A program made the translations under genes and the position numbers. Shown here piece by piece: positions 4,201 to 31,970 of a DNA stretch of 32,000 nt. Position 1 is the first letter of the stretch. Each line of letters opens with the position of its first letter. The notes under the pieces were generated by a model, which had not been told where the DNA came from, made no database searches, and worked only from the letters and a program-made list of their open reading frames with translations. This DNA is from Cereibacter sphaeroides 2.4.1 (GTDB taxonomy: Bacteria; Pseudomonadota; Alphaproteobacteria; Rhodobacterales; Rhodobacteraceae): positions 1 through 32,000 of the forward strand of contig NC_009007.1 of NCBI RefSeq assembly GCF_000012905.2. Reading direction: 5' to 3'.

Positions 4201-4215
4201 CCGGGGCCCGGGCGC

Positions 4216-8939: not shown

Positions 8940-8942
8940 CCC

Positions 8943-13567: not shown

Positions 13568-13768
13568 CCGATCGTCCTTCTGCCGAAAGGCCGCAGCTTT
13601 CCCGCAGGCCCCGGGGAACTCAAGGCTCATTCGGGCCTTGCCGCCGCAGGCGACCCTCCGGCGCGCGCGCGGGGCCGGCGGGAGGCGGGACCGATGGCGG
13701 CCCCTCCGGCGGATTTGAACCCCGCGCGCGCTTGGCATAAGGGTGGGACAGAAGCGCGGGAGACGGCC

Positions 13769-14605
13769 ATGACAGAGACGCCCACCATCGTGACCATCGG
13801 CGACATCGCCATCGGGGGCGGCCATCCGATCGCGCTCATCACCGGGCCCTGCCAGCTCGAGAGCCTCGATCATGCCCGCATGATGGCCGAGCGCATCGCC
13901 GAGGCCTGCGCGCCCACCGGAACGAAGTTCATCTTCAAGGCGAGCTACGACAAGGCCAACCGCTCGTCGCTCTCGACGGCGCGGGGCCTCGGGATGGAGA
14001 AGGGGCTCGAGATCCTCGGCCGGATCCGCGAGGAGTTCGGCGTGCCGGTCCTGACCGACGTCCATGAGCCCGGCCATTGCGCGACGGCCGCCGAGGTCTG
14101 CGACGTGCTGCAGATCCCGGCCTTCCTCTGCCGGCAGACCGACCTTCTGCTCGCGGCGGGCGAGACCGGCCGCGCCGTCAACGTCAAGAAGGGCCAGTTC
14201 CTCGCGCCCTGGGACATGAAGAACGTGGCCGACAAGGTGGCCTCGACCGGCAACCGGCGGATCCTGCTCTGCGAGCGGGGCACCTCCTTCGGCTACAACA
14301 CCCTCGTGACCGATTTCCGCGGCCTGCCGACCATGGCCGCGACCGGCTGGCCCGTGGTGTTCGACGCCACCCATTCGGTGCAGCAGCCGGGGGGCCTCGG
14401 CGGCTCCTCGGGCGGGCAGCGCGAATTCGCCCCGGTGCTCGCGCGGGCGGCCTGCGCGGTGGGGGTCTCGGCGCTCTTCATCGAGACGCACGAGGATCCC
14501 GACCGCGCGCCCTCGGACGGGCCGAACATGATCCCGGTGGACCGGATGGGCCGGCTCATCGCCGATCTCTGCGCCTTCGACGCGCTGGCCAAGTCGCTCG
14601 CCTGA
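13769..14605 (+). CDS. kdsA: 3-deoxy-8-phosphooctulonate (KDO-8-P) synthase
   Basis: ATG at 13769. [51 protein letters not shown] and [11 protein letters not shown] are canonical KdsA motifs. Length is 278 aa. Confidence 0.93.
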
Positions 14606-14737: not shown

Positions 14738-15331
14738 TCAGGCCGGCCGCACGGCCCGCGCCCAGAGCGCGAAGCGTCCGTCGGTCTGCACCGTGATCTC
14801 GGCGAAACCCGCGGCGCCCAGATGGCGGGCGAGCGAGGCCGCGGTGAAGCCCGTGCGGTGGGCCATGAAATCGTTGCCTTCGGCAATGGCGGGGCGGAAG
14901 CCGTAGAGGATGTCGAGCGGCGCGATCGGTCCCAGCGCCGAGACATAGGCCGGCTCCTCGAGCAGGCCCTGCGCCACGAGGAGCGCCACCGCCTGCAGGT
15001 CGGGCAGGGTCGCGAGCAGGAAGCCGCCCGGGCGGAGCACGCGGTGGAATTCGGCCAGCGCCAGCGGCACCTCGTGCGGGCGCAGATGTTCGAGATTGTG
15101 CGAGGACCAGACCGCATCCACCGACCCGTCCGCGACCATGGGCATCCCGGTGATGCTGGCCAGGATGTCGGGCGCGACGCCCGGATCGATGTCGAGCCGG
15201 AGCTCGCGCCAGTCACCGGCGGGAAAGACATCGCCGGGCAGCTTGGCGGGATTGGCCGCGCCGCAGCCGACATGGAGGACGGTGCGCGTCTCGGCGCGGG
15301 CCTCCGGGGTCTCGAGGGTCAGGGTCTCCAT
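14738..15331 (-). CDS. Class I SAM-dependent methyltransferase
   Basis: ATG at 15331 with GGAG 8 nt upstream, 22 bp after the HlyD-family gene stop. Motif I is VLHVGCG, the post-I/II region is VDAVWSSHNLEHL, and RVLRPGGFL is a Methyltransf_11-like fold signature. Confidence 0.8.
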   Translation of the reverse strand: METLTLETPEARAETRTVLHVGCGAANPAKLPGDVFPAGDWRELRLDIDPGVAPDILASITGMPMVADGSVDAVWSSHNLEHLRPHEVPLALAEFHRVLRPGGFLLATLPDLQAVALLVAQGLLEEPAYVSALGPIAPLDILYGFRPAIAEGNDFMAHRTGFTAASLARHLGAAGFAEITVQTDGRFALWARAVRPA

Positions 15332-15353
15332 GGGGCACTCCGGATGGGTTGGA

Positions 15354-16652
15354 TCAGGGACGGGGCTCGCGCAGGCTTTCGCTCAGCCCCTCGAGCAGCG
15401 GGTCGAGGAAATAGGACAGGAGGGTGCGGCGGCCGGCAAGGATGTCGGCCGTGAGCGTCATGCCGGGCATCAGCCCCTCGGGCAGGGGGGGACCGGGCGG
15501 AAAGACCACCCGCGCCGCATGCTGGGCGGGGCCGCCGCCGGGCGGGACGGCCGAACTCGGCGCCACGTCGGCCAGCCGGCCCTCGACCATGCCGTGATGG
15601 CGCCAGGGGAAGGCATCGACCTTGACCCGCACCGGCGCCCCCGCCCGCACGAGGCCCGCATCGCGCGACAGAAGCCCCAGTTCGGCGTGAAGCCCGCCGC
15701 CTGTGGGCGCGATCACCGCCACCGGATCGGCGGGCGTCATCAGCGAGCCGGGCCCGCCCGCCGCCACCGACAGGACCACCCCGGCCCCGGGCGCCCGCAG
15801 CTCGTGCAGCCGCGCGAGATCGGCGGTCTCGGCGATCTGCTCGGCCAGAACCGCGCGCCGCGGCCGGAGGTCGGCCAGCTCCTCGAGCAGCTTCTGCCGC
15901 CGGTCGCTCTCGAAGGCGGCAAGCCGTGCCGCGGCGCCCGCGCGTTCCTGCAGGAGGCCGTCGAGCGTGGCCTCGTTCCGGCGCTGGCGGGCCTCGGCCT
16001 CGAGCCGCGCGAGCCGCGTCTCGACGAAGGCCGCCCGGGTGCCGTTCTGCCTTGTCATCAGCCGCTCGCGCATCGCCTCGAGCTCGCGCGCGGTGGCGAG
16101 CGTCTCGGCCAGTGCCGGCCGCTCGGCGCGCGCGGCCTCGATGCCGCGGTCGATCCGGGCGAGATCGGCCTCGAGCCCGCGGCGCAGCGCGGTCTCGGTC
16201 GCGGCGCGGCCGGACTGGATGCGGCCCTCGAGCGCGCGGTCGGGGCCCGTGCCCGCGAGCGGCCGACCCACCAGCTCGGCCTCGATCCGCGCGATCCGCG
16301 CCGAGAGGGCGGCGGCCTGCGCCTTCAGCTGCGCGGCATCGGCGTCGGAGGTCCGGCTGTCCAGCCGCGCGAGCAGCTGGCCCGGCGCCACCAGATCCCC
16401 CGGCCGCACAAGGAGGCTGCGCAGCACCGCGGCCGTCACCGGACGCAGGACCGCGGCCGGATCGTCGGCCGCGATCCGGCCCGCGGCGCTCACCACCACA
16501 TCGATGGGCAGGAGGGCCGCAAGCCCCACCAGCGCCGCCAGCAGCGCCCCCGCCCCGAAGGGCCAGAGCCGGAGCAGCCAGGGCAGCGGCTCGTGCCGGA
16601 TCCGTTCGAGCGGCGACTGATAGGCCAGGGCCTCGGGCGCGAGCCTCCTCAT
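15354..16652 (-). CDS. Type I secretion periplasmic adaptor (HlyD-family membrane fusion protein)
   Basis: The ATG at 16652 overlaps the ABC gene stop (ATGA). It has an N-terminal TM (LWPFGAGALLAALVGLAALLPI), a lipoyl-like segment (VLRSLLVRPGDLVAPGQLLARLD), a long coiled-coil, VRVKVDAFP and MPGMTLTADI, matching HlyD organisation. The upstream 929 codons of the 1,361-aa track ORF are an out-of-frame overlap and are discarded. Confidence 0.88.
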   Translation of the reverse strand: MRRLAPEALAYQSPLERIRHEPLPWLLRLWPFGAGALLAALVGLAALLPIDVVVSAAGRIAADDPAAVLRPVTAAVLRSLLVRPGDLVAPGQLLARLDSRTSDADAAQLKAQAAALSARIARIEAELVGRPLAGTGPDRALEGRIQSGRAATETALRRGLEADLARIDRGIEAARAERPALAETLATARELEAMRERLMTRQNGTRAAFVETRLARLEAEARQRRNEATLDGLLQERAGAAARLAAFESDRRQKLLEELADLRPRRAVLAEQIAETADLARLHELRAPGAGVVLSVAAGGPGSLMTPADPVAVIAPTGGGLHAELGLLSRDAGLVRAGAPVRVKVDAFPWRHHGMVEGRLADVAPSSAVPPGGGPAQHAARVVFPPGPPLPEGLMPGMTLTADILAGRRTLLSYFLDPLLEGLSESLREPRP

Positions 16653-18823
16653 GACAGATGCTCGGTCTGCTGGCGCCAGAGATGGGCATAGATCTCGCAG
16701 CCCGCGAGCAGCGCCTCGTGCGGGGCGAAGGCCACGAGCCGGCCCTGGTCGAGCACCGCGATCCGGTCGGCGCGCACGAGGGACGAGAGCCGGTGCGAGA
16801 CCACGATCATGGTCCGGCCGCGGGCGATGGCGGCGAGGTTGCGGTTGACCACCGCCTCGGACTCGGGGTCGAGCGCGCTCGTGGCCTCGTCGAGGATCAG
16901 GATGCGCGGATCGGTGAGCAGCGCGCGGGCGATCGCCACCCGCTGGCGCTGGCCGCCCGAGAGGTTCGCGCCCCCCTCCTCGACGGGCGTGTCGAAGCCC
17001 CGCGGCAGGCGGCGGATGAATTCGTCGGCCCCCGCAAGGGCGGCCGCGCGCACCACCGCCTCGAGCCCGGCCTCGGGGCGGGCGAGGGCGATATTCTCGC
17101 GCAGCGTGCCGCGGAAGAGCAGATTGTCCTGCAGCACGATCCCCACCTGCCGCCGCAGAGGGCCGAGCGCGATGCTGCGGATGTCGATCCCGTCGAACAG
17201 GATCAGCCCGGCCTGCGGGGTCTCGATGCCCTGGATGAGCCGGGTGAGCGTGGTCTTGCCCGAGCCCGAGCGCCCGACGATGCCGATCACCTGCCCGGGC
17301 TCGATGGCGAGGCTCACCTGATCGAGCGCGGGCGTGGCGGCGCCGGGATAGGCGAAGCTCACCCCCCGGATCTCGAGCGCGCCGGTGAGGGCGGGGCGGG
17401 CGAGGGCGGCGGTGTCGGGCCGTTCGGGCGGATGATCCATGATCCGGCGCAGCATCCCGATCGACAGGGCGGCCTCCTGCCATTCGTTGACGAGCCCCAC
17501 GATCTGGACGAGCGGCCCGCTGACCCGCCCGGCCAGCATCAGCACCGCCACGAGCGTGCCCACCGTGATCGCGCCCTCGAGCGCCAGCGCCACGCCGAAG
17601 GCCACCACGCTCACCTGCATCAGCCGCTCGAGCAGGCTGGTGAGCGTGCTCGTGACGGCCGAGACGCGGCCCAGATCCCACTGCCGGCGCACCGAGAGGG
17701 CGAGGCTCTCCTCCCAGAGCGCGCCGCGGGCGGGCTCGACCGCGAGCGATTTCACCGCGCGCATGTTGTGCAGCGTCTCGACCAGAAGCGCCTGCCGCTC
17801 GGCCTCGACCGCATAGACCGCGTTCAGCCGCCGCTGGAGGAGCGGCAGCATGAGGGCGATGCAGCCCGCGATGGCGATCCCGTAGGCCGCGATCACCAGC
17901 GCGAGCCGGCCCGACAGGAAGGCCAGCGTGGCGAAGAGCACGGGCAGGAGGGCCGCGTCGAGCAGGGTCTGCAGCAGCCGCCCGGTCAGGAACTGGCGGA
18001 TCCTGTCGGTCTGCTGGATGTTGCGCGCGAGCACGCCCGCGGGCGTGGTCTCGAACAGCGTCATGGGCAGCGAGAGCAGATGGGCCACGCTCTCGGCCCC
18101 CAGATGGGCGTCGATCCGGCCGCCCGCGATCTGGCTCAGCCGCTGGCGGACATAGCCGAAGCCCGCGTCGAACAGCGCCAGCAGCACGAAGACCGCGGCG
18201 ACCGCGGCGAGCGTGTTCCAGGCCCGGTAGGCGATCACCCGGTCGATCATCGCCTGCATGAGGAGGGGCAGCGCGTAGGAGATCAGGTTGCCGATCACCA
18301 CCGCCACCGCGACGCCGAGAAAGAGCCCCTTCTCGCGCGCGAGCGCGGGCAGGAACCAGCGCAGCCCGAAGGCGGTCTCGGCGGCCCTCGGCCGGTCGGG
18401 GCGCCCGATCAGGATCAGCCGGCCGGTCCAGTCCCGGGCGAAGTCCTCCCAGGGCAGGGGCTGCACCCCCTGGGCCTCGTTCCGCGGATCGAGGAGGGCC
18501 ACGGTCCGCGCGCCCTCGGCCCCGCCCGCATGGACCAGCACCGCCCAGTGCCCGCCCCGCAGCTCCGCCAGCGCGGGATAGGCCTGCCCGAGCCGCGAGG
18601 CGGTGCGCCAGCCCGCATCGGCCAGCAGCCGGCAGCGCAGCCCCTTGCCGCCCAGAAGCCGCAGCAGATCGGGCGCGAAATCGCCGGTCTCGAGCGGGGG
18701 CAGCTCGTCGGGGCCGAGCAGCACCCCGTGATGGGCCGCCACCAGAAACACCGCGCGCAGCGTCGACAGCACGGGCGTGTCGAGCGCGATGGACCCGGGA
18801 AGCTGGGAATCGAAGGCTGCCAT
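16649..18823 (-). CDS. Type I secretion ABC exporter (HlyB-type) with N-terminal C39-like domain
   Basis: 724 aa: a ~140-aa N-terminal peptidase-C39-like domain, a 6-TM exporter domain and an NBD. Walker A is [10 protein letters not shown], the signature is [15 protein letters not shown], Walker B is ILILDEATSALD, and the H-loop is VSHRL. At the position of the C39 catalytic Cys (D-C-G) this protein reads D-T-P. Confidence 0.92.
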   Translation of the reverse strand: MAAFDSQLPGSIALDTPVLSTLRAVFLVAAHHGVLLGPDELPPLETGDFAPDLLRLLGGKGLRCRLLADAGWRTASRLGQAYPALAELRGGHWAVLVHAGGAEGARTVALLDPRNEAQGVQPLPWEDFARDWTGRLILIGRPDRPRAAETAFGLRWFLPALAREKGLFLGVAVAVVIGNLISYALPLLMQAMIDRVIAYRAWNTLAAVAAVFVLLALFDAGFGYVRQRLSQIAGGRIDAHLGAESVAHLLSLPMTLFETTPAGVLARNIQQTDRIRQFLTGRLLQTLLDAALLPVLFATLAFLSGRLALVIAAYGIAIAGCIALMLPLLQRRLNAVYAVEAERQALLVETLHNMRAVKSLAVEPARGALWEESLALSVRRQWDLGRVSAVTSTLTSLLERLMQVSVVAFGVALALEGAITVGTLVAVLMLAGRVSGPLVQIVGLVNEWQEAALSIGMLRRIMDHPPERPDTAALARPALTGALEIRGVSFAYPGAATPALDQVSLAIEPGQVIGIVGRSGSGKTTLTRLIQGIETPQAGLILFDGIDIRSIALGPLRRQVGIVLQDNLLFRGTLRENIALARPEAGLEAVVRAAALAGADEFIRRLPRGFDTPVEEGGANLSGGQRQRVAIARALLTDPRILILDEATSALDPESEAVVNRNLAAIARGRTMIVVSHRLSSLVRADRIAVLDQGRLVAFAPHEALLAGCEIYAHLWRQQTEHLS

Positions 18824-18937
18824 ATCGTCCTGTGTAGGCGGCGGGCCTTAAGGCTCCGTTTCCCTCATCCCCGGGCGGGCGCGAGATCCCTCCCGGGTCC
18901 GGCGCCTGTCGCGCGGAGGAGGCCGGACGTCCGGGCC

Positions 18938-20710
18938 TCAGGCGCGGCGGGCGACCGAGAGCAGGGCCGCCTCGAAACGGCGGGTGAAATCGCGGCAGTC
19001 GCCCAAGGTGAGGCTCCAGCGCTCGGCGAGGGCGGGCCCCGTCAGGGCGGGGGCCGCCGCCGGGTCGGTGGCGATCGCCACAGCGCGGGCGACATAGGCC
19101 TCGAGGTCGGGGGCGATGCAATCTTCCAGCCCCACCGCCGTGAGGAGGCTCGCCGCCATCCGGCCCGAGAAGGTCCGCCCCGCGAGCGTGAGCAGGGGCA
19201 GCCCCATCCGGAGCGCGTCCGAGGCGATGGTCCCGGCATTGTAGGGCATCGTGTCGAGAAAGAGGTCGGCCAGCGCCAGCCGCGCCCGGTAGCGGGCGGG
19301 ATCGACGCGGGGGGCAAAGATCAGCCGGTGGGGGTCTAGGCCCGCCGCCTGCCAGCGGCCGGCCAGCGCCGCCTGCCCCTCGGGCGTATCCGCGACGAGC
19401 CACAGGACCGACCCCGGCACGGCCGCGACGATCCGGCACCAGGCGGCGAAGAGGGGCTCGGTGATTTTGTAGAAATGCGAGGCGCAGGCGAAGACGAAGG
19501 CGGCCTCCGGCAGGCCCTCGCCCGGGCGGTCGACGGCGGGCAGCAGGGGCCGTTGCCCGTCGTTGGCCTGATAGCAGCCCTCGAGCCGGAGCGGGGCCGG
19601 GCGGTAATGGGCGGCCTCGGCCTCGGGCACGGTCACTCGGTCGCAGATCAGCCAGTCGAGCTCGGGCAGCGGGACCGGCCCGATATAGCCCAGATAGGTC
19701 GCCTGCACCGGGGCGGGCTTCCAGCGCAGGATGCCCGGCCGGGCGCCGCGGGTCAGCCCGTTGAGATCGATCAGCAGGTCGATCTCGTCGGCGCGGATGC
19801 GCCGGGCCGCGGCCTCGTCGGAGAGGGGGCCGATCGGCACATGCCGGTCGAGGGCGGCGAGCACCCGCGCGCGCTCGGGGCTGCCGTCCTCGGGCGAGGC
19901 GCAGTAGCCCACCACCTCGAACCGGCTGCGGTCGTGGCGCTCGAGCAGTTCGGCGATGAGGAAGCTCATGGCGTGGCGGCAGAAGTCCGACGAGAGATAG
20001 CCGAGCCGCAGCCGGTCGTGGCGGTAGCCCCCGGCCGGGGCGAGCCGAATGCCCGGATCGGGCACATGCCGGGCGATCCAGGCCGCGGCCACCTCGCCCT
20101 GCCGAAGGGGATCGTCATGCAGCGCGAGGGTGGCGAGCGGGCCGCACTGCAGCTCGGCCTCGGCCTCGGTCAGGCCGGGGACGGCGAGCCGGGCCGGGGG
20201 CCAGGCCGCCATCTTCTGGCGGGCATGGACGAGATGCTGCACCACCTCGGGCTGGCGGGGATCGAGGAGAAGCGAGGCCCGCAGCTCCTCGGCGGCCTCC
20301 GCGAGCCGGCCCTCGGCCTCGAGCATCCGGCCGAGCTGGCGGTGGAGCTGGCGCCGCCCCTCGGCCGGGGGCAGCACCTGGCGCAGGAAGGCCAGCGCCT
20401 GCGTCCGGTCGCCCTGCGCCTCGGCCGCCTGACCGGCCGCGAGGGCCGCCTGCCACAGATCCGGCTTCTGGCGGAGCGCGGTGGCGGCCGCGCCGAGCGC
20501 CCCCTGCGGCTCGCCCGCAGCCTCGAGCAGCACCGCGAGATTGAACCAGGCGATCCAGGCGTCGGGCCGCTCGGGATGGAGCGCGAGCCAGCGGCGGTAG
20601 ATCTCGATCGCCGCGGCGGGGGCGGCCTCGGCCAGACCCACCAGCTGCTCGGCCGTGAGCGGGGGAGAGACGGAGCCGATGGGCAGGATCGGGGCGGGCT
20701 GCACCGTCAT
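18938..20710 (-). CDS. TPR-containing GT41-family glycosyltransferase (O-GlcNAc transferase / SPINDLY-like)
   Basis: ATG at 20710 with GAGGAG ~7 nt upstream (the track ORF starts at GTG 20734). The N-terminal ~190 aa are TPR-like. The C-terminal catalytic region aligns by eye with eukaryotic OGT motifs as I recall them: LRLGYLSSDFCRHAMSFL vs VGYVSSDFGNHPTSHL (catalytic His), PVQATYLGYIGP vs PIQAMWLGYPGT, FYKITEP vs LYKIDP (UDP-binding Lys), and LFLDTMPYNAGTIASDALRMGLPLLTLAG vs [29 protein letters not shown]. Confidence 0.85.
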   Translation of the reverse strand: MTVQPAPILPIGSVSPPLTAEQLVGLAEAAPAAAIEIYRRWLALHPERPDAWIAWFNLAVLLEAAGEPQGALGAAATALRQKPDLWQAALAAGQAAEAQGDRTQALAFLRQVLPPAEGRRQLHRQLGRMLEAEGRLAEAAEELRASLLLDPRQPEVVQHLVHARQKMAAWPPARLAVPGLTEAEAELQCGPLATLALHDDPLRQGEVAAAWIARHVPDPGIRLAPAGGYRHDRLRLGYLSSDFCRHAMSFLIAELLERHDRSRFEVVGYCASPEDGSPERARVLAALDRHVPIGPLSDEAAARRIRADEIDLLIDLNGLTRGARPGILRWKPAPVQATYLGYIGPVPLPELDWLICDRVTVPEAEAAHYRPAPLRLEGCYQANDGQRPLLPAVDRPGEGLPEAAFVFACASHFYKITEPLFAAWCRIVAAVPGSVLWLVADTPEGQAALAGRWQAAGLDPHRLIFAPRVDPARYRARLALADLFLDTMPYNAGTIASDALRMGLPLLTLAGRTFSGRMAASLLTAVGLEDCIAPDLEAYVARAVAIATDPAAAPALTGPALAERWSLTLGDCRDFTRRFEAALLSVARRA

Positions 20711-20962
20711 GGGGATCTCCTCGGTTTGCGGCACCTTCGCCGCTTCCGGTTAAGGGAGTCCTCATGCCGGGCCTGACCTCTTCCGTGTGCGCCGCGAGCC
20801 CGCTTCAATTTTAGGAGGAAACGCGCGGTCGCGGCGGGCGGCGTTAGGACTTTCCTTACCGCCGCTCGGAAGAATGCCGGAAATCACGGAGGCCAGCATG
20901 GCTCCGCATGCTGGTGGATGCGCCCAGGAAATGCGTGCGCCCCGCCCCATAGGGTGAGTGTG

Positions 20963-23900
20963 ATGACCGACTTCAGCAGCAAGACCACAGCAGAGATCGC
21001 GGCCCTGACGAGCGCCGAGGTCGCCAGCATGTCGAGCCAGGATCTGGCCGCCCTCTCCACCGCCCAGATCGCGGCGCTCACCGCCCAGCAGATCGGCTGG
21101 GTCAAGGCGGCGTCGCTGAAGGGGTTGGGGGATGCGCAGGTGGTGGCGCTGACGACGGCGCAGGCGGCGGCGCTCGGCTCGGCGCAGCTGGCCGCGCTGA
21201 CGACGGCGCAGGTGGCGGCGATGGAGACGGCCGATCTCGCGGCGCTCTCGGCCACGGGGGTGGCGGGGCTGACTTCGGCGCAGCTCGGGGGGCTCTCGAC
21301 CGGTCAGGTGGCGGCCCTCACCACGGCGCAGGTCGCGGCCCTGTCCAGCGTGGCGGTCAAGGGTCTGGGCTCGGTCCAGGCCTCGGGTCTCACGACGGCC
21401 CAGGTGGCCGCCCTGTCGACCGCCCAGCTCAAAGCCTTCTCGACCGCGGGCATGACGGGGCTCGGCACGGCGCAGATCGTGGCGCTCTCGAGCGCGCAGG
21501 CGGCGGTGCTCGGCTCGGCACAGGTCGCGGCGCTCACGACGGCGCAGGCGGCGGCGATGGAGACGGCCGATCTCGCGGCCCTCACCAGCGTGGCGGTGAA
21601 GGGGCTGAGCTCGACCCAGGTGGGCGCGCTGACCACGGCGCAGGTGGCGGCGCTGACCACGGGACAGCTCGGCGCGCTCTCGACCGGGGCGCTGAAGGGC
21701 CTGACCACGGCGCAGGTGGTTGCCCTGACCACGGCGCAGGCGGCCGGGCTCGGCTCGGCGCAGGTGGCGGGCCTCTCGAGCACGCAGATCGCGGCGCTGG
21801 AGACGGCGGATCTGGCCGCCCTCTCCTCGGCGGGGCTGAAGGGGCTCGGATCGGCGCAGGCCGCGGGCTTGACGACGGCGCAGGTGGCGGCGCTCACGAC
21901 GGCTCAGGTGGGCCAGCTTTCGAGTGCCGCGCTGAAAGGGCTCGGCACGGCGCAGGTGGTGGCACTGACGACCGCGCAGGCGGCGGCGCTCGGCACGGCG
22001 CAGGTGGGCGCGCTCTCGACCGCACAGGTGGCGGCGCTCGAGACCGTCGATCTCGCGGCGCTCTCGACGGCGGCAGCGAATGCCCTGACCTCGGCTCAGG
22101 CCGCGAGCCTCACGACGGCGCAGGTGGCCGCGCTGACGACGGCGCAGGTTGCGGCGCTCTCGACGGGGGCGGTGAAGGGGCTGAGCTCGACCCAGGCGGG
22201 CGCGCTGACCACGGCACAGGTGGCGGCGCTGACCACAGGACAACTGGGCGCACTCACGACGGCGGCGCTGAAGGGCCTGACCACGGCGCAGGTGGTGGCA
22301 CTGACCACGGCGCAGGCGGCGGGGCTCGGCTCGGCGCAGGTGGCGGGGCTCTCGAGCACGCAGATCGCGGCGCTGGAGACGGCGGATCTGGCCGCGCTTT
22401 CCACGACGGGGCTGAAGGGTCTGGGCTCGGCGCAGGCCGCGGGCCTGACCACGGCGCAGGTGGCGGCGCTCACCACGGCTCAGGTGGGCCAGCTCTCGAG
22501 TGCCGCGCTGAAAGGGCTCGGGACGGCGCAGATCGTGGCGCTGACGACGGCGCAGGCGGCGGCGCTGGGGTCGACGCAGGTGGCCGGGCTCTCGACCGCG
22601 CAGGTGGCGGCGCTGGAGACGGCCGATCTCGCGATGCTCTCGACCGCGGGGGTGAAGGCGCTGAGCTCGACGCAGGTGGGCGCGCTGACGACGGGGCAGG
22701 TGGCGGCCCTGACCACGGCGCAGGCCGCCCAGCTCTCGACGGCGGCGCTGAAGGGCCTGAGTTCGACGCAGGTGGCGGCCCTGACGACGGGGCAGGTGGC
22801 GGCCCTGACCACGGCCCAGCTCGGCGCGCTGACGACGGCGGCGCTGAAGGGCGTGACCACGGCGCAGGTGGTGGCGCTGACCACGGCGCAGGCGGCGGGG
22901 CTCGGCTCGGCGCTGCTGGCGGGCCTGTCGAGCACGCAGATCGCAGCGATCGAGACGGCGGATCTGGCCGCGCTCTCCACCACCGGGCTGAAGGGTCTGG
23001 GCTCGGCGCAGGCGGCGGGCCTGACCACGGCGCAGGTGGCCGCCTTCACCACGGCGCAGGTGGGGCAGCTTTCGACGGCGGCGCTGAAGGGGCTCGGCAC
23101 GGCGCAGGTGGTGGCGCTGACCACGGGCCAGGCGGGGGCGCTCGGCTCGGCGCAGGTGGCGGGTCTCTCGACCGCGCAGGTGGCGGCGCTCGAGACGGCC
23201 GATGTCGCGGCGCTCTCGACGGCGGGGGTGAAGGGCGTGGGCTCGGCGCAGGCGGCGGCCCTCGGCTCGGCGCAGGTGGCAGCGCTGACGACGGCGCAGG
23301 TGGGCCAGCTTTCGACCACGGCCCTGAAGGGCTTCGGCTCGGTGCAGGCTTCGGGTCTCACCACGGCGCAGGTGGCGGCGCTGACCACGGCGCAGCTCTC
23401 GCAGCTCTCGACGGCGGCGGTGAAGGGGCTCGGCACCGCGCAGATCGTGGCGCTGACCACGGGCCAGACGGCAGCGCTCGGCTCGGCGCAACTGGGCGCC
23501 CTCTCGACGGCGCAGGTGGCGGCCTTCGAGACGGCGGATGCCGCGGCGCTGACCACGACGGCGCTGAAGGGGCTGACCACGGCGCAGGTGGTGGCGCTGA
23601 CGACGGGTCAGGCGGCGGCGCTCGGCTCGGCGCAGGTCGCGGGCCTGTCGAGCACGCAGATCGCGGCGCTCGAGACGGCGGATCTCGCGGCCCTGACCAC
23701 CACGGCGGTGAAGGGCCTGGGCTCGACGCAGGTTTCGAGCCTGACGACGGGGCAGGTGGCGGCGCTCACCACCGTGCAGGTGGCGGCGCTGAGCACGGCG
23801 GCCGTGAAGGGCGTGGGCTCGGTGCAGGCCTCGGGGCTGACGACGGCGCAGGTGGCGGCGCTGACCACGGCCCAGGTGGCCCAGCTCTCGACGGCGGCGC

Positions 23901-25648
23901 TGAAGGGGCTCGGCACGGCGCAGATCGTGGCGCTGACCACGGCCCAGGCGGCCAAGCTCGGCTCCGATCAGGTCGCCGCCCTCTCGACGGCGCAGGTGGC
24001 GGCGCTGGAGACGGCGGATCTGGCGACCCTCTCGGCCACGGGCGTGAAGGGCTTCGGATCGGCACAGGCGGCGGCCCTCGGCTCGGCACAGGTGGCGGCG
24101 TTCACCACGGCGCAGGTGGCGGCGCTGACCACGGCGGCGGTGAAGGGCTTCGGCTCGGTGCAGGCCTCGGGCCTCACCACCGCGCAGGTGGCCGCGCTGA
24201 CCACGGCGCAGCTCTCGCAGCTCTCGACGGCGGCGGTGAAGGGGCTCGGCACGGCGCAGATCGTGGCGCTGACCACGGGCCAGACGGCGGCGCTCGGCTC
24301 GGCGCAGCTGGGTGCCCTCTCGACGGCGCAGGTGGCGGCCTTCGAGACGGCGGATGCCGCGGCGCTGACCACGACGGCGCTGAAGGGGCTGACCACGGCG
24401 CAGGTCGTGGCGCTGACCACGGGTCAGGCGGCCGCCCTCGGCTCGGTGCAGGTGGCGGGTCTCACGACCGCGCAGATGGCGGCGCTCGAGACGGCGGATC
24501 TCGCGGCCCTCACCACCACGGCGGTGAAGGGGATCACCACCGCCCAGATGGGGGCGCTGACGACGGGACAGGTGGCAGCCCTCACCACGGCGCAGGTGGC
24601 CGCGCTTGCGGGCACGGCGGTGAAGGGACTGTCCTCGACCCAGGCGGGGGCGCTGACGACGGCACAGGTGGCGGCGCTGACCACGGCCCAGGTGCCCCAG
24701 CTCTCGACGGCGGCGCTGAAAGGGCTCGGCTCGGCCCAGATCGTGGCGCTGACCACGGCCCAGGCGGCCGTCCTCGGCTCGGCGCAGCTGGGCGCCCTCT
24801 CGACGGTGCAGGTGGCGGCGCTCGAGACGGTCGATCTCGCGGCCCTGACCACCGCGGCCGTGAAGGGCCTCGGCTCGGCCCAGGTCGCGGGCCTGACCAC
24901 GGGCCAGGTGGCGGCCCTCACCACGGCGCAGATGGCCCAGCTCTCGACGGCGGCGATCGCGGGTCTGGGATCGGTGCAGGCCTCCGGCCTGACCACGGGC
25001 CAGGTGGCGGCCCTCACCACCGATCAGCTCGCCCGGATCACCACCGCGGCGGTGAAGGGGCTCGGCACGGCGCAGATCGTGGCTCTGACCACGGCGCAGG
25101 CGGCGACGCTCGGCTCGGCGCAACTGGCCGCGCTTTCGACGGCGCAGGTGGCGGCCTTCGAGACGGCGGATGTGGCGGCGCTGACCACCGCAGCGGTGAA
25201 GGGCTTCGGGACAGCGCAGGTGGCGGCGCTGACCACCGGGCAGGCGGCCGCCCTTGGCTCGCGTCAGGTGGGCGCGCTTTCCACGGCGCAGGTGGCGGCG
25301 CTCGAGACGGCGGATCTCGCAGCCCTCACCACCGCGGCCGTGAAGGGTCTGGGATCGGCGCAGGCGAAAGTCCTGACGGCGGCGCAGATGGCCGCGCTCA
25401 CCTCGGCTCAGGTGGCGGCCCTCACCACGACCGCCGTGGCAGGCTTCGGCTCGGTGCAGGCGGCGGCGCTCACCACGGCGCAGATGACGGCGCTCACCAC
25501 CGCGCAGATCCCCACCCTGACCACGGCCGCCATCAAGGGTCTCGAAACCGCCGATATCGCGGCGCTCACCACGACGCAGGCGTCGGCCTTCACGGCCACG
25601 CAACTGGGGGCCATGTCGAGCGCCCAGATCGCGGCTCTCTTCCTCTGA
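20963..25648 (+). CDS. Giant octapeptide-repeat protein (194 x L-T-T-A-Q-V-A-A-type repeats); function unknown, candidate T1SS cargo or O-glycosylation substrate
   Basis: ATG at 20963 (MTDFSSK) is in an ORF open from 20918 to the TGA at 25646-25648. Third codon positions are almost uniformly G/C in this frame. The in-register antisense ORF has its third positions on this frame's first positions (many A of Thr codons), so the + strand is the coding one. A strong hairpin plus T-rich tract lies just downstream. There is no Sec/Tat-like N-terminus and no recognised domain. Confidence 0.8.
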   Translation: MTDFSSKTTAEIAALTSAEVASMSSQDLAALSTAQIAALTAQQIGWVKAASLKGLGDAQVVALTTAQAAALGSAQLAALTTAQVAAMETADLAALSATGVAGLTSAQLGGLSTGQVAALTTAQVAALSSVAVKGLGSVQASGLTTAQVAALSTAQLKAFSTAGMTGLGTAQIVALSSAQAAVLGSAQVAALTTAQAAAMETADLAALTSVAVKGLSSTQVGALTTAQVAALTTGQLGALSTGALKGLTTAQVVALTTAQAAGLGSAQVAGLSSTQIAALETADLAALSSAGLKGLGSAQAAGLTTAQVAALTTAQVGQLSSAALKGLGTAQVVALTTAQAAALGTAQVGALSTAQVAALETVDLAALSTAAANALTSAQAASLTTAQVAALTTAQVAALSTGAVKGLSSTQAGALTTAQVAALTTGQLGALTTAALKGLTTAQVVALTTAQAAGLGSAQVAGLSSTQIAALETADLAALSTTGLKGLGSAQAAGLTTAQVAALTTAQVGQLSSAALKGLGTAQIVALTTAQAAALGSTQVAGLSTAQVAALETADLAMLSTAGVKALSSTQVGALTTGQVAALTTAQAAQLSTAALKGLSSTQVAALTTGQVAALTTAQLGALTTAALKGVTTAQVVALTTAQAAGLGSALLAGLSSTQIAAIETADLAALSTTGLKGLGSAQAAGLTTAQVAAFTTAQVGQLSTAALKGLGTAQVVALTTGQAGALGSAQVAGLSTAQVAALETADVAALSTAGVKGVGSAQAAALGSAQVAALTTAQVGQLSTTALKGFGSVQASGLTTAQVAALTTAQLSQLSTAAVKGLGTAQIVALTTGQTAALGSAQLGALSTAQVAAFETADAAALTTTALKGLTTAQVVALTTGQAAALGSAQVAGLSSTQIAALETADLAALTTTAVKGLGSTQVSSLTTGQVAALTTVQVAALSTAAVKGVGSVQASGLTTAQVAALTTAQVAQLSTAALKGLGTAQIVALTTAQAAKLGSDQVAALSTAQVAALETADLATLSATGVKGFGSAQAAALGSAQVAAFTTAQVAALTTAAVKGFGSVQASGLTTAQVAALTTAQLSQLSTAAVKGLGTAQIVALTTGQTAALGSAQLGALSTAQVAAFETADAAALTTTALKGLTTAQVVALTTGQAAALGSVQVAGLTTAQMAALETADLAALTTTAVKGITTAQMGALTTGQVAALTTAQVAALAGTAVKGLSSTQAGALTTAQVAALTTAQVPQLSTAALKGLGSAQIVALTTAQAAVLGSAQLGALSTVQVAALETVDLAALTTAAVKGLGSAQVAGLTTGQVAALTTAQMAQLSTAAIAGLGSVQASGLTTGQVAALTTDQLARITTAAVKGLGTAQIVALTTAQAATLGSAQLAALSTAQVAAFETADVAALTTAAVKGFGTAQVAALTTGQAAALGSRQVGALSTAQVAALETADLAALTTAAVKGLGSAQAKVLTAAQMAALTSAQVAALTTTAVAGFGSVQAAALTTAQMTALTTAQIPTLTTAAIKGLETADIAALTTTQASAFTATQLGAMSSAQIAALFL
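20981..25636 (+). repeat. 24-bp periodic coding tandem array (194 units, 4,656 bp) with 120/240-bp super-repeats
   Basis: The unit is approximately GCG CTG ACC ACG GCG CAG GTG GCG. 6 codons + 194x8 codons + 3 codons equals the ORF length exactly, consistent with no net register shift. The register was checked by eye at both ends and through several internal stretches. Confidence 0.85.
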
Positions 25649-25661
25649 CATAGAGGGAGCA

Positions 25662-25696
25662 CCTCCGGCCCTTCGGGGCCGGAGGATCTTCTTTCC
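25662..25696 (+). terminator. Rho-independent terminator candidate
   Basis: CCTCCGGCCC-TTCG-GGGCCGGAGG (10-bp perfect GC-rich stem, tetraloop) at 25662-25685, followed by ATCTTCTTTCC. It lies 14 nt after the giant gene stop, between convergent genes. Confidence 0.65.
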
Positions 25697-25732
25697 CCGC
25701 CCCCGGACCCTGCCCGGCGGCGGCCCCCACCC

Positions 25733-28700
25733 TCAGATCACGAAGAAATCCGCGGCCGTCAGGCCGAGCCCCGCCGAGAGGGTCGCGATCTGCACCCGCG
25801 CGCCCCCTCCGGTGCCGTCGGCATCGAACCAGAGCGCCCCGGTGTCGCGCTCATAGAGGATCCGGTCGGCCGCATCGGTGGCCTGTCCCGAGAGGTTGGA
25901 GGCAAAGGCCGCCCCGCGCAGCGCCCCCGCCGGAAGGCCGCGGAACACCGCATTTTCCAGATGGATCACGTCGTCGGCCACGTTGAAATCCGCGATCCGG
26001 TCGATCGCGCCGGGCCCGGGGCGGGTGTTGAAGACAAAGCTGTCGCGCCCGGCGCCGCCGATCAGCAGATCCGCCCCGCCGCCGCCGCTCAGCGTGTCGT
26101 TGCCGGCGCCGCCGCTCAGCCGGTTCGCGCCGCCATTGCCGATCAGCAGGTTCGAAAGCCCGTTGCCGGTCCCCGAAAGGTTCGCCGTGCCCGTCAGCAC
26201 CAGCGTCTCGAGCTGGGCGCCCAGCGTGTAGCTGACCGAGGCGCGCACCACATCCACCCCCTGGCCCGCGCGCTCCACGATCGTGTCGCCGCCATCGGTG
26301 ATGTAGGTGTCGTTGCCCGTCCCGCCGATCATGACGTCGCGCCCGCCGCCGCCGTTCAGCGTGTCGTTGCCGGCAAGCCCCTGCAGCCGGTTCGCCCCGC
26401 CATTGCCGGTGAGCAGGTTCGCAAGCCCGTTGCCGGTGCCCGACAGGGCAGCCCCGCCGGTCAGCACCAGCCGCTCGACATTGGCGGCCAGGGTCCAGGA
26501 GAGGCTGCTCTGCACCGTGTCGATACCGCCCCCGGCCAGCTCGATCGTGCTGTCCCCGGCATGGTTGACGATATAGCGGTCGTTGCCCGTGCCCCCCACC
26601 ATCCGGTCGCGTCCGCCGCCGCCGTCGAGCAGGTCGTTGCCCGCGCCGCCCGACAGAAGGTCATTGCCGCCCCGGCCCTCGATCCGGTCGTTGCCGCCGA
26701 ACCCCTCGATCCGCTCGGCATTGGCCGTGCCGATCAGCCGGTCGTTGCCGCCCGAGCCGCGGAGCGTGCCGTCGAGGAGGGTGGCCACCCCCACCGGCAC
26801 CGGCGTGGCCGAGGAGATGGCGCTGGGGAAGGGCGGCACGAGGCGTAGGCTGAAGCTCTCGGTATTCTCGAGCACGAGATCGTCGAGGATGGGGATGAGA
26901 ATTTCGGCCCGGGTCTGGCCGGGCAGGAAGACCACCTCGCCCGACCGGGCGGCGAAGTCGCTGCCCGGGCGGGCCGTCCCGGCGAGGGTCTGGAAGCCGA
27001 TGGCGATCCGCTCGGCCGAGGCGGCCGAAAGCTCGACCACGAAGACCGCGACCCGGCCGCCGGGCCCTTCCTGCAGCGTGGCATGGCCGACCGAGACCGA
27101 GCGGTTCAGCCCCACCCCGTCATTGTCGAGCACCCAGCCGCCGGTGGACAGGGCGCGGTTGCCGCCGCCGAACTGCGCGCCGCGGGGATCGCTCAGATCG
27201 AGAAAGAAGCTCTCGTCGATCTCGTCGAGACTGTCGTTGTAGGAACGGATGCGGAGGGTCTGCACCGTCTCGCCGGGGGCGAAGGTGAGGGTGCCCGAGG
27301 GGGCCGTGGAATAGAAATCCTCGTCGAGCAGCGCGGTGCCGGAGCGGAACTGGTAATCCACGCTCACCGCGTCGGTCGCGGGCTCGGAGAGCCGGATCGT
27401 ATAGGTGAGGTAGCTGCCCTCGACCACCCGGTCGCCTTCGACCGAGATCACTGGCACCGGCCCGTCGTCGTTCAGGATCTCGGCCGTGCCGGTGGCGGCG
27501 GGCACGCCATGGGCGCCGGTGACGGCCAGACCGAAGGTCTCGCCCGCCTCGACCGCGCCATCGTTGATCAGATTGACCGCGACCGTGGCCTCGGTCTGGC
27601 CGGCGAGGAAGGTGACGGTGCCGGTGCGGGCAACATAATCCGCGCCTGCCCGGGCCGAGCCGTCATGGGTCGTGTAGGTGAAGCTGCGGTCGGTGGTGAA
27701 GGCCTCCGACAGCGTGAGGGTGAAGAGCGCCTGCCCGCCTGCGGCCTCGGTCACCACCGGGTTCGAGACGGCCAGTGCCCGGTTCACCCCCACGCCGTCA
27801 TTGTCGATCACCCAGCCCGTCGTGACGAGGGTCGAGATGTTGGCGCCGAACCGCGCGCCCTGCGGTTCGCTCAGCTCGAGAAAGAAGCTCTCGTCGATTT
27901 CGTCGAGACTGTCGTTGTAGGAGCGGATGCGGAGGGTCTGCACCGTCTCGCCCGGGGCGAAGGTGAGCGTGCCCGAGGGGGCGGTGGAATAGAAATCCTC
28001 GTCGAGCAGCGCGGTGCCCGAGCGGAACAGGTAATCCACGCTCACCGCGTCGGTCGCGGGCTCGGAGAGCCGGATCGTATAGGTGAGGTAGCTGCCCTCG
28101 ACCACCCGGTCGCCCTCGACCGAGATCACCGGCACCGGCCCGTCGTCGTTCAGGATCTCGGCCGTGCCGGTCGCGGCGGGCACGCCATGGGCGCCGGTGA
28201 CCGCGAGGCCGAAGGTCTCGCCCGCCTCGACGGCGCCATCGTTGATCAGATTGACCGCGACCGTGGCCTCGGTCTGGCCGGCGAGGAAGGTGACTGTGCC
28301 GGTGCGGGCCACGTAATCCGCGCCCGCCCGGGCCGACCCATCGTAGGTCGTGTAGGTGAAGCTGCGGTCGGTGGTGAAGGCCTCCGACAGCGTGAGGGTG
28401 AAGAGCGCCTGCCCGCCCGCGGCCTCGGTCACCACGGGGTTCGAGACGGCCAGCGCCCGGTTCACCCCCACGCCATCGTCGTCGATCACCCAGCCCGCGG
28501 TGACGAGGGTCGAGATGTTGGCGCCGAACTGCGCGCCCTGCGGATCGCTCAGTTCGAGAAAGAAGCTCTCGTCGATCTCGTCGAGCCTGTCGTTGTAGGA
28601 CCGGATCTGGAGGGTCAGCACCGTCTCGCCGGGGGCGAAGACGAGCGTGCCCGAGGGGGCGGTGGAATAGAAATCCTCGTCGAGCAGCGCGGTGCCGGAG

Positions 28701-28822
28701 CGGAACAGGTAATCCACGCTCACCGCATCGGGGGCGGGCTCGGAGAGCCGGATGGTGTAGGTGAGGTAATTGCCCTCGACGACGGGGGTGCTGGTGACGC
28801 TGAAGGTCGGAAGAATGGCCAT
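25733..28822 (-). CDS. Calx-beta repeat / RTX (hemolysin-type calcium-binding) secreted protein, T1SS substrate
   Basis: ATG at 28822 (MAILPTFSV); the track ORF begins at an upstream TTG. It has six Calx-beta-like modules (VVEGxYLTYTIRLSEP..VSVDY..SGTA..DEDF, DESFFLELS). The C-terminal ~330 aa carry many GGxGxD nonapeptides (GGNDRIEGRGGNDLLSGGAGNDLLDGGGGRD). The protein ends in ...LTAADFFVI, typical of alphaproteobacterial T1SS C-terminal signals. Confidence 0.88.
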   Translation of the reverse strand: MAILPTFSVTSTPVVEGNYLTYTIRLSEPAPDAVSVDYLFRSGTALLDEDFYSTAPSGTLVFAPGETVLTLQIRSYNDRLDEIDESFFLELSDPQGAQFGANISTLVTAGWVIDDDGVGVNRALAVSNPVVTEAAGGQALFTLTLSEAFTTDRSFTYTTYDGSARAGADYVARTGTVTFLAGQTEATVAVNLINDGAVEAGETFGLAVTGAHGVPAATGTAEILNDDGPVPVISVEGDRVVEGSYLTYTIRLSEPATDAVSVDYLFRSGTALLDEDFYSTAPSGTLTFAPGETVQTLRIRSYNDSLDEIDESFFLELSEPQGARFGANISTLVTTGWVIDNDGVGVNRALAVSNPVVTEAAGGQALFTLTLSEAFTTDRSFTYTTHDGSARAGADYVARTGTVTFLAGQTEATVAVNLINDGAVEAGETFGLAVTGAHGVPAATGTAEILNDDGPVPVISVEGDRVVEGSYLTYTIRLSEPATDAVSVDYQFRSGTALLDEDFYSTAPSGTLTFAPGETVQTLRIRSYNDSLDEIDESFFLDLSDPRGAQFGGGNRALSTGGWVLDNDGVGLNRSVSVGHATLQEGPGGRVAVFVVELSAASAERIAIGFQTLAGTARPGSDFAARSGEVVFLPGQTRAEILIPILDDLVLENTESFSLRLVPPFPSAISSATPVPVGVATLLDGTLRGSGGNDRLIGTANAERIEGFGGNDRIEGRGGNDLLSGGAGNDLLDGGGGRDRMVGGTGNDRYIVNHAGDSTIELAGGGIDTVQSSLSWTLAANVERLVLTGGAALSGTGNGLANLLTGNGGANRLQGLAGNDTLNGGGGRDVMIGGTGNDTYITDGGDTIVERAGQGVDVVRASVSYTLGAQLETLVLTGTANLSGTGNGLSNLLIGNGGANRLSGGAGNDTLSGGGGADLLIGGAGRDSFVFNTRPGPGAIDRIADFNVADDVIHLENAVFRGLPAGALRGAAFASNLSGQATDAADRILYERDTGALWFDADGTGGGARVQIATLSAGLGLTAADFFVI
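27200..28822 (-). repeat. 678-bp (226-aa, two Calx-beta modules) tandem repeat, ~2.4 copies, near-identical
   Basis: The antisense track ORFs 27678..27920 and 28356..28598 encode nearly identical peptides at an offset of exactly 678 bp. The protein repeats PVPVISVEGDRVVEGSYLTYTIRLSEPATDAVSVDY... almost verbatim. The lower boundary is approximate. Confidence 0.8.
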
Positions 28823-29133: not shown

Positions 29134-29772
29134 ATGTTTCAGACCGTCACGATCCTGCTCGACTGGTTCGGCCTGTGCATCTTCACCGTGACGGGCGCCC
29201 TCGTCGCCTCGCGCAAGGAGATGGACATCGCGGGCTTCGTGCTGCTCGGGGCGGTGACCGGCGTGGGCGGCGGCACGATCCGCGATCTCGTGCTCGGCCG
29301 CACCCCGGTCTTCTGGGTCGAGGAGCCGGCCTATGTGCTGGCCTGCCTCGGCGTCGCGGTCTTCACCTTCTTCTTCGCCCACATCCCCCAGTCGCGCTAC
29401 CGCTTCCTGCTCTGGCTCGATGCGGTGGGCCTGTCCCTCTTTGCGGTGACGGGGGCCGAGCGGGCGCTGCAGACCGGGGCGGGGCCGGTGATCGCGATCG
29501 CCATGGGGGTGGCCACGGCGACCTTCGGCGGCATCCTGCGCGATCTTCTGGGCGGCGAGAGCCCGGTGATCCTGCGGCGCGAGATCTATATCACCGCGGC
29601 GCTTCTGGGGGCGGCCGCCTTCGTGGCGCTCGACGCATTCGGCGCCCCGCGCGAGCTGGCGCTGGGGGCGGGGTTCGCCGCGGCCTTCCTGTCGCGGGCG
29701 GCGGGCCTCGTCTGGGGCCTGTCGCTGCCGCGCTACCGCGCGCGGCCGGGCCGGCCCGAGGGGCGGGGCTGA
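29134..29772 (+). CDS. TRIC-family cation channel (UPF0126/YadS-type, two glycine-kinked repeats)
   Basis: ATG at 29134 with GGAGGAGG 5 nt upstream. It has two internal repeats, each with the conserved glycine motif (VTGVGGGTIRDLVLG and ATATFGGILRDLLGG), and about 7 TM segments. Confidence 0.88.
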   Translation: MFQTVTILLDWFGLCIFTVTGALVASRKEMDIAGFVLLGAVTGVGGGTIRDLVLGRTPVFWVEEPAYVLACLGVAVFTFFFAHIPQSRYRFLLWLDAVGLSLFAVTGAERALQTGAGPVIAIAMGVATATFGGILRDLLGGESPVILRREIYITAALLGAAAFVALDAFGAPRELALGAGFAAAFLSRAAGLVWGLSLPRYRARPGRPEGRG

Positions 29773-29776
29773 GCCC

Positions 29777-30286: not shown

Positions 30287-30360
30287 GGGGCGGCTCTCGG
30301 AGAGGGGGGTGGTCCGCCCGCCGGGTCCGGCGGGAGGACCGGGCCGGGAGGGGGCCCGGC

Positions 30361-31080: not shown

Positions 31081-31091
31081 GAAGTCTCTCC

Positions 31092-31967: not shown

Positions 31968-31970
31968 GGC

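Follow-up and report, generated by a model that had tools for sequence, protein, structure and literature searches.

That a repeat-containing surface protein can have its own modifying enzyme and its own exporter is, as a general logic, already known. In the hlyCABD RTX operons, HlyC acylates pro-HlyA before its export by HlyB/D, tolC is unlinked and the C-terminal signal is not cleaved. GspB and Fap1, serine-rich repeat adhesins of Gram-positive bacteria, are O-glycosylated in the cytoplasm by GtfA/B and exported by a dedicated SecA2/Y2 pathway from the same locus. Crystal structures of bacterial OGT homologues exist and have served as models (XcOGT), and to our knowledge there is no agreed native substrate for XcOGT or for TtOGT of Thermobaculum terrenum. 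In the HMW1A/B/C system of Haemophilus influenzae, a cytoplasmic glycosyltransferase of family GT41 is encoded beside a giant secreted protein that is modified before export (PMC3012730; PMC10507012). In this study, we analysed a stretch of 32,000 nucleotides (the window) of Cereibacter sphaeroides 2.4.1, which harbors, on a 124-kb plasmid, genes for a TPR-containing GT41 enzyme, a HlyB-type ABC transporter, a HlyD-family adaptor, a methyltransferase and a giant protein made of ALTTAQ octads. With moderate confidence, we propose that these five genes are one functional module for the synthesis, modification and export of a repeat fibre protein. Gene content, domain identities and the conservation of catalytic residues, linkage and protein termini are the parts of this picture that the analysis shows. 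It is tempting to speculate further, and this part is tentative, that the locus represents an unrecognised and widespread system in which the GT41 enzyme would O-glycosylate each octad, the methyltransferase would modify the product further and the dedicated HlyB-class exporter would secrete the resulting glycoprotein.

Plasmids from other strains of C. sphaeroides share 97-99% identity with the window, and the record NZ_CP015290.1 of the 124-kb plasmid matches it at 100% (window coordinate = record coordinate + 298). Genes were fixed by GC content at third codon positions (GC3) together with Pfam/NCBIfam matches and the RefSeq annotation, and the six-frame list of open reading frames (ORFs) was full of artefacts because of the GC content of the window (~72%). 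The module consists of the following features.

14738-15331, minus strand: class I S-adenosylmethionine-dependent methyltransferase (MT), 197 aa (Pfam Methyltransf_11, 44 bits)
15354-16652, minus strand: HlyD-family type I secretion periplasmic adaptor, 432 aa (TIGR01843, 205.8 bits; Pfam HlyD_3)
16649-18823, minus strand: HlyB-type ABC permease/ATPase, 724 aa (ABC_membrane, 127.7 bits; ABC_tran, 121.3 bits; TIGR01846, 574.5 bits)
18938-20710, minus strand: TPR and GT41 glycosyltransferase, 590 aa from the ATG (PF13844, 201.7 bits, and TPR matches); an alternative start is the GTG at 20734
20711-20962: divergent intergenic region between the GT41 and ALTTAQ genes, 252 bp by the NCBI start codons
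20963-25648, plus strand: ALTTAQ-repeat giant protein, 1561 aa (Pfam ALTTAQ_rpt PF20080, 1192 bits)

On the minus strand the MT and HlyD genes are separated by 22 bp, the HlyD and ABC genes overlap in an ATGA and a gap of 114 bp lies between the ABC and GT41 genes. An earlier, sequence-only reading of the window had described these genes with their gaps, their overlap and their divergent and convergent neighbours, and all of them were recovered at the same coordinates. A simple scan of the 252-bp divergent region gave no sigma-70-like consensus, a result that is uninformative at such GC content.

Conservation of the module was analysed in loci from other genomes. The scan used an alignment of GT41 orthologues and covered one genome per species; the best 80 of 162 stretches encoding GT41 relatives were kept as loci, and a subset of 35 had full flanks (>=9 kb on both sides). 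Proteins of the window were searched against the loci by tblastn, and all coding-like ORFs were in addition clustered without supervision. The loci come from Rhodobacterales (Rhodovulum, Rhodobacter capsulatus, R. maris, Stagnihabitans, Amaricoccus, Xinfangfangia) and Acetobacteraceae (Roseomonas, Falsiroseomonas, Neoroseomonas, Roseicella, Paracraurococcus), with the following counts.

Full-flank loci (n = 35): ALTTAQ gene adjacent, 34; ABC or HlyD gene within 10 kb, 25; MT gene, 17; all four, 16
All loci (n = 80): ALTTAQ gene adjacent, 72; ABC or HlyD gene within 10 kb, 49; MT gene, 36; all four, 26

An ALTTAQ gene is lacking from eight loci, in six of which the sequence upstream of the GT41 gene is shorter than 1.5 kb. 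By these counts, the gene arrangement occurs far more often than expected by chance. In the clustering of ORFs, the widely shared families were exactly those of the module. Next in frequency came methyltransferases of the FkbM type (13 loci) and NAD-dependent epimerases/dehydratases (8 loci), recurrent sugar-pathway accessories which we count in favour of a modifying system. The sequence-only reading had proposed a conserved set of GT41, ABC, HlyD, MT and octad-repeat genes, and this was borne out across Rhodobacterales and Acetobacteraceae, with a diverged form in contigs of betaproteobacterial type. The co-directional arrangement GT41-ABC-HlyD-MT, which it described as an operon, is specific to Cereibacter. 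The stable units are the pair of ALTTAQ and GT41 genes, most commonly divergent in other genomes as well, and the block ABC>HlyD>MT, and their relative orientation varies. In Cereibacter the block is co-directional with the GT41 gene, in Rhodovulum and many others the block and the GT41 gene are convergent, R. capsulatus has it beyond the ALTTAQ gene, and the order in Acetobacteraceae is ABC>HlyD>ALTTAQ>GT41a>GT41b<MT. That the linkage outlasts several orders and orientations argues for a shared function rather than for inherited order. An adjacency without functional meaning, due to inherited or hitch-hiking gene order, is therefore very improbable: the alphaproteobacterial loci are all related by descent, so that their counts are not independent events, but the linkage is kept through differing orders and orientations, on plasmid and chromosome and in two bacterial orders, and it recurs in another class with proteins that are just 34-45% identical. 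In two Acetobacteraceae loci (L046:13268-16045 and one other) a PAS-GGDEF-EAL gene is found between the MT and HlyD genes, which hints at control of the module by cyclic di-GMP (c-di-GMP).

The module was also reached from other entry points. Both MT homologues that lie on long contigs are part of an ABC>HlyD>MT block beside an ALTTAQ gene, the first on the chromosome of Rhodovulum sulfidophilum with a GT41 gene adjoining, the second neighbouring an ALTTAQ gene that encodes >3,278 residues and shares the C-terminus of the giant protein. MT orthologues in the same block elsewhere are 62-78% identical, and HlyD orthologues (49 of the 80 loci) are 36-66% identical.

The giant protein matches PF20080 in 57 stretches with a total of 1192.3 bits (gathering score 26.4). 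Written out in eights, the chain consists of 195 octads in an unbroken register without any insertion or deletion, and their consensus is [T/S/G][T/S]A[Q]hxx[L]. Position 1 is T, S, G or E, position 2 is T or S in 95% of the octads, position 3 is A, position 4 is Q or, in ETAD octads, D, position 5 is V, L, I or A, and position 8 is L in 88%. The 24-bp period of the DNA shows just 59% matches, and therefore the repeats are old and their register has been kept by selection on the protein. As the sequence-only reading had stated, the protein holds a single Asn, no N-x-S/T sequon and 365 Ser/Thr among its 1561 residues; ALTTAQ orthologues contain a median of ~3 such sequons per 1000 aa. The RefSeq names of the giant protein, 'ICE nucleation protein' or 'heme utilization protein', look like repeat-driven misnomers. 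The two ends of the protein are kept across two orders, namely the first three octads (M.VIS.L.T.QI..L) and the C-terminal ~5 octads (...ET.DIAAL[TS]D.Q.AGF[TS]T.Q[IL]G.M[ST]..Q.NALF[LAT]*). The conserved extreme C-terminus is consistent with a type I secretion signal, a class of signals for which no consensus model exists that could score it. Inspection of the N-terminus, made without a predictor, revealed neither a Sec/Tat-type leader or hydrophobic signal peptide nor, in its conserved part, a double-Gly leader. In Pfam, no match to RTX (HemolysinCabind), Ig-like/BIg or retention modules was obtained for the ALTTAQ protein, the only RTX match being in the neighbouring Calx-beta protein. Across species (L014:5-9670, L088:10775-20609, L010, L016) the ALTTAQ genes encode between 353 and >3,200 residues with the same terminal octads.

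Residues 89-352 of the giant protein were modelled with AlphaFold2 (AF2) from 14 staggered segments of its own sequence, aligned with each other; with this self-derived alignment the model reached a pLDDT of 93 and a pTM of 0.85, and four of five models agree. Each octad is predicted as one helix of 5-6 residues (positions 2-7) plus a turn, giving a solenoid. Foldseek returned mesothelin as the best match to the repeat model (TM-score 0.36), with Armadillo and LRV weaker, and no fold could be assigned. In the model, Ser/Thr at position 1 together with Gln4 can be read as a helix N-capping box, which would put the near-invariant Thr/Ser of position 2 on an exposed helix start.

The putative modifying enzyme matches PF13844 in two stretches (201.7 bits, cut-off 25), and TPR_14, TPR_2, TPR_19 and TPR_16 in residues ~34-169. 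In the PDB, its residues 46-589 align end to end with residues 17-562 of XcOGT (2jlb; E 5.9e-63), and human OGT (hOGT; E 7e-66), SPINDLY (E 3e-36) and the Thermobaculum OGT were matched as well. Both catalytic lobes of human OGT are matched, without its intervening domain, and no HMW1C/NGT chain was among the PDB matches. The expectation of the sequence-only reading, O-linked rather than HMW1C-style N-linked modification, is in line with these matches to OGT, XcOGT and SPINDLY and with the lack of sequons. N-glycosylation of the HMW1C type was rejected: the cargo has no sequon in 1561 residues, and the enzyme possesses TPRs and resembles OGT/XcOGT and not NGT. Residues of OGT and XcOGT that were mutated or discussed before (PMC2556091) were compared in an alignment with orthologues 60-73% identical to the query. 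Tyr414-Lys415 (HFYKI; hOGT Y841/K842), Thr494, Asp498 and the His of SSDFCRH are kept and are invariant in 19 aligned orthologues. The phosphate-contacting His (XcOGT His466, hOGT H920) is replaced by Gly493, which is invariant in the subfamily, as is Ile495 at the position aligned here with hOGT T922. This Gly makes any assignment of the donor sugar uncertain. SPINDLY is an active O-fucosyltransferase (PMC9715652) and carries, in our alignment, a Thr at the position equivalent to XcOGT His466; thus, the GT41 enzyme need not be inactive.

These residues bear on the possibility that the GT41 protein is mainly a TPR chaperone or adaptor, which would keep the repeat protein unfolded for the exporter with little or no catalysis. 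The Gly found throughout the subfamily would fit such a role, as would the canonical His in the second GT41 paralogue of Acetobacteraceae. We nevertheless give this explanation little credence, as the catalytic Lys (equivalent to hOGT K842) and the Tyr, Thr and Asp are invariant in the 19 aligned orthologues and SPINDLY is active with Thr at the aligned position (PMC9715652). In the Acetobacteraceae (L046:7677-11659; L055-L074) two tandem GT41 paralogues adjoin the ALTTAQ gene. Of the two, the one orthologous to the window enzyme reads 'PYNSGTVASD' (Gly type) and the extra copy, 38% identical, reads 'AHTTASD' with the phosphate-binding His of OGT. This pairing points to enzymes that differ in donor specificity or act one after the other.

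The ABC protein of the window is 34% identical to E. coli HlyB. Its N-terminal ~150-160 aa give a weak match to Peptidase_C39 (E 0.14), limited to profile positions 75-129, and the relatives of the ABC protein match the same family with E values from 0.0067 to 3e-11. HlyB also served for an alignment of the C39-like domain, in which no Cys is found at the catalytic position. A PDB sequence search with the N-terminal domain gave no meaningful match. A bacteriocin-type C39 exporter was rejected, given that the catalytic Cys is absent and the cargo has no double-Gly leader. The ABC protein probably belongs to the HlyB class, which exports unprocessed cargo with a C-terminal signal. No gene of the TolC family was found in the window, as the sequence-only reading had also noted, and none in the loci from Alphaproteobacteria; for HlyB-class systems it is normal that tolC is encoded elsewhere.

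A different division of labour has to be weighed at this point, in which the exporter serves another protein (in Cereibacter the Calx-beta/RTX protein), whose neighbour, the ALTTAQ protein, remains intracellular or takes another way out. HlyB-class transporters with a C39-like domain usually handle RTX cargo, an RTX protein adjoins the module in Cereibacter and in two R. capsulatus loci, and ten of the 35 full-flank loci have no T1SS (type I secretion system) genes within 10 kb. On the other hand, RTX genes are missing from nearly all orthologous loci, where the ALTTAQ gene is nearly always there, and ABC>HlyD stands directly before the ALTTAQ gene in Acetobacteraceae, directly after it in two loci of betaproteobacterial type (L084, L089) and one short ORF after it in a third (L083). 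The ALTTAQ protein, by inspection, has no N-terminal signal peptide, and relatives carry a Ca2+-dependent module of extracellular type. Export of another protein is accordingly an improbable account of the transporter.

These relatives came from a search in which residues 1-440 of the ALTTAQ protein served as the query; most of the proteins returned were of betaproteobacterial type (Rhodoferax, Methylibium, Janthinobacterium and others). In them, ALTTAQ repeats are followed by PF26745 'SPM', a Ca2+-dependent self-processing module of the FrpC type; NCBIfam matched no family. The FrpC-type SPM is known from RTX proteins secreted by type I systems, and its presence in the betaproteobacterial relatives would support type I export of ALTTAQ proteins. 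The surroundings of these genes are as follows.

L083: divergent 1208-aa TPR-GT41, GT1-family glycosyltransferase, FkbM MT, one short ORF, C39-ABC, HlyD
L089: TPR-GT41, TolC-family OEP, Sel1 protein, cargo, ABC, HlyD, GT4
L084: cargo > ABC > HlyD > GT4, with the upstream side cut off
L082: filled with giant ALTTAQ ORFs, nothing else in view
L090 and L091: beside flagellin genes and GT2 and MT genes

The window's ABC protein shares 43-45% identity with those encoded in L083, L084 and L089. Two further loci (L085, L086) were not counted as members, their weak ALTTAQ matches being fused to calpain or standing alone, without the module. In ALTTAQ proteins of the SPM type (L082-L084, L089-L091; P0139, P0125, P0132, P0161) a Ser/Thr precedes the first Pro of the SPM (..ISPIALDLNGDG, ..GTPIVLDLNGDG). 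The scissile bond of FrpC is described as Asp-Pro, and the betaproteobacterial proteins may undergo no self-cleavage, or a different one. In L090:1-11532 and L091:6000-15224 the ALTTAQ-SPM gene directly adjoins flagellin, flaG and fliD genes, in L091 also fliS; L091 holds two GT2 genes and a methyltransferase gene in addition. The ALTTAQ-SPM gene may be linked to a flagellin glycosylation island.

For the MT, a substrate was sought by a PDB sequence search, which gave one marginal match (RebM, E 0.004), and by a fold search with an AF2 model, which gave only generic class I methyltransferases (TM-scores of 0.4-0.6). This generic fold, which carries no substrate signal, would be compatible with GT41 and MT acting on something else, such as a glycan or lipid anchor, an envelope protein or the secretion machinery, while the ALTTAQ protein is a type I cargo. 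The Ser/Thr pattern of the octads could be explained by helix capping, polysaccharide genes flank the module in Cereibacter, and GT4 and GT2 enzymes, able to build glycans, occur in betaproteobacterial loci. However, TPR-GT41 enzymes glycosylate proteins in every characterised case (OGT, SPINDLY; PMC2556091; PMC9715652), and the tightest conserved pairing is that of the GT41 and ALTTAQ genes (34 of the 35 full-flank loci). We regard a target other than the ALTTAQ protein as unlikely.

For the module in which the ALTTAQ protein is both modified and exported, we infer each biochemical step, where and how the protein is modified, by which route it leaves the cell and what it does outside. The ALTTAQ protein would be synthesised in the cytoplasm without a Sec/Tat-type leader. 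The TPR superhelix of the GT41 enzyme would bind the unfolded octads, and sugar would be transferred to a Thr/Ser hydroxyl, most plausibly at octad position 2. The MT might then add methyl groups to the sugar or the protein, as its linkage to the other genes suggests. The HlyB-type ABC protein with its non-catalytic C39-like domain would recognise the conserved C-terminal octads of the modified, unfolded chain, and export would take place in one step through ABC/HlyD and an unlinked channel of the TolC family. Outside the cell, the chain is predicted to fold into a long solenoid of short helices and to form a surface fibre, coat or adhesin.

Several observations weigh against this scheme. The best NCBIfam match of the ABC protein (type_I_sec_HlyB, TIGR01846) stays at 574.5 bits below the curated cut-off of 725.55, and the HlyD adaptor reaches 205.8 bits for TIGR01843 with a cut-off of 208.65, covering positions 13-421 of 422. 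The cargo is without the RTX repeats that are usual for such transporters, and T1SS genes are absent from the 10-kb surroundings in the ten full-flank loci mentioned above. The phosphate-contacting His is lost in the enzyme subfamily. The structural model of the repeat was built on an alignment of the protein's own repeats, and since a capping role explains the pattern of Thr/Ser and Gln, Ser/Thr richness alone is no proof of glycosylation. Finally, the passage of a densely glycosylated chain through a type I channel is in question.

The remaining features of the window lie outside the module.

1-14605: kps-like exporter and ABC ATPase, ParB/ParA/RepA, GT2, rfbCBDA, two sulfotransferases, kdsA
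7374-8312: GT2 gene, ~10 kb from the module
8376-11718: rfbCBDA (dTDP-rhamnose operon), ~10 kb from the module
25662-25685, plus strand: terminator-like hairpin with a 10-bp GC-rich stem and a T-rich tail, between the convergent giant and Calx-beta/RTX genes
25733-28822, minus strand: Calx-beta (x6) and RTX protein (Calx-beta, 260 bits; HemolysinCabind, 97.8 bits)
29134-32000: TRIC-type channel, Lrp regulator, sulfate ABC importer (cysTWA)

Two links drawn by the sequence-only reading did not hold in the comparison. The Calx-beta/RTX protein had been taken as a module partner, but it adjoins the module only in Cereibacter plasmids (in all those of C. sphaeroides) and orthologous loci are without it. 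Weak matches to the RTX region were found in three loci: two R. capsulatus strains have an RTX gene in common that adjoins the GT41 gene, and in R. maris one lies farther off. The Calx-beta/RTX protein is thus probably outside the conserved module; judged by adjacency, it may be an opportunistic second cargo in Cereibacter. It contains three near-identical units of ~245 residues with two Calx-beta domains each, which points to a recent internal triplication, and a diverged copy is present on a plasmid of Rhodobacter sp. CZR27. The dTDP-rhamnose operon and the GT2 gene had been mentioned, as speculation, as a sugar supply and are not near the module in other loci, the recurring epimerase/dehydratase genes encoding distant paralogues with 23-28% identity to RfbB. 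The sulfotransferases and kdsA are likewise only local context, as judged by tblastn on the loci. Together, the plasmid genes around RepA/ParAB look like a locus for a sulfated surface polysaccharide containing rhamnose and Kdo.

The hairpin starts 14 bp past the stop codon of the giant gene, inside the 84-bp gap to the Calx-beta/RTX gene, and is a candidate terminator, possibly a bidirectional one. A minus-strand, Arg-rich ORF of 1629 aa (20762-25651) over the repeat gene was rejected as an antisense artefact: only the plus frame has a coding-type GC3 (0.93) and a Pfam match, and the long ORF arises because the repeat DNA is GC-rich and stop-poor. Similar antisense ORFs cluster across 66 loci.

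In the open-access and bioRxiv literature, we found no papers on the ALTTAQ repeat, on a GT41 enzyme in a type I locus or on these Rhodobacter/Cereibacter genes, and type I secretion, O-linked modification and adhesins go unmentioned in the paper on the biofilm plasmid. The novelty lies in combining an OGT-type enzyme and its conserved candidate substrate, a candidate non-RTX cargo of a HlyB-class exporter and an 8-residue repeat whose predicted fold has no close solved analogue. The conserved neighbour offers a GT41 enzyme a candidate substrate with hundreds of near-identical acceptor motifs, in a host that is genetically tractable. If the proposal is true, the ALTTAQ protein would be the first native substrate of a bacterial TPR-OGT and the first cargo of a type I system to have its own glycosyltransferase, it would define a new 8-residue helical repeat fold, and it would stand for a class of non-RTX cargo modified before type I export. 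Since the plasmid of this well-studied phototroph is rich in genes for surface polysaccharides, the module likely matters for surface properties, attachment or interactions with phages and predators.

In general, the module shares its parts with several known systems and differs from each of them. With the serine-rich repeat adhesins it has a similar logic in common, but those belong to another phylum, use accessory Sec and GT4/GT8 families and have another type of repeat; no homology to components of accessory Sec or GtfA/B was detected here. XcOGT (XCC0866) and the Thermobaculum terrenum OGT (5djs) possess the same ~3-4 TPRs and two GT-B lobes without the intervening domain, and the present subfamily differs from XcOGT by the invariant Gly at the His466 position, by Ile at the aligned hOGT Thr922 and by a conserved candidate substrate next door. 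The systems of LapA, SiiE, MpIBP, RsaA and SwmA likewise combine a very large, non-Sec repeat protein with adjacent ABC and membrane fusion protein (MFP) genes. Production of SwmA depends on an ABC transporter and glycosyltransferases. SwmA of Synechococcus is itself a glycoprotein (PMC2943079). In comparison with the LapA-type adhesins and S-layers, the ALTTAQ octad is a different repeat, and GT41 and MT are core members of the module. HMW1C/NGT resembles the enzyme described here in being a GT41 protein encoded beside a giant protein, whose modification in our case is proposed; NGT is without TPRs, N-glycosylates N-x-S/T and belongs to a type Vb system, whereas here TPRs are present, the cargo has no sequon and the predicted exporter is of type I. 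As is proposed for the present module, the hlyCABD RTX operons combine a cytoplasmic cargo-modifying enzyme, a HlyB-class ABC protein with a non-catalytic C39-like domain, HlyD and a large repeat cargo. There, however, lysines are acylated, whereas glycosylation and methylation are proposed here for a cargo without Gly/Asp nonapeptide RTX repeats, exported by ABC and HlyD proteins that score below the NCBIfam cut-offs for HlyB and HlyD.

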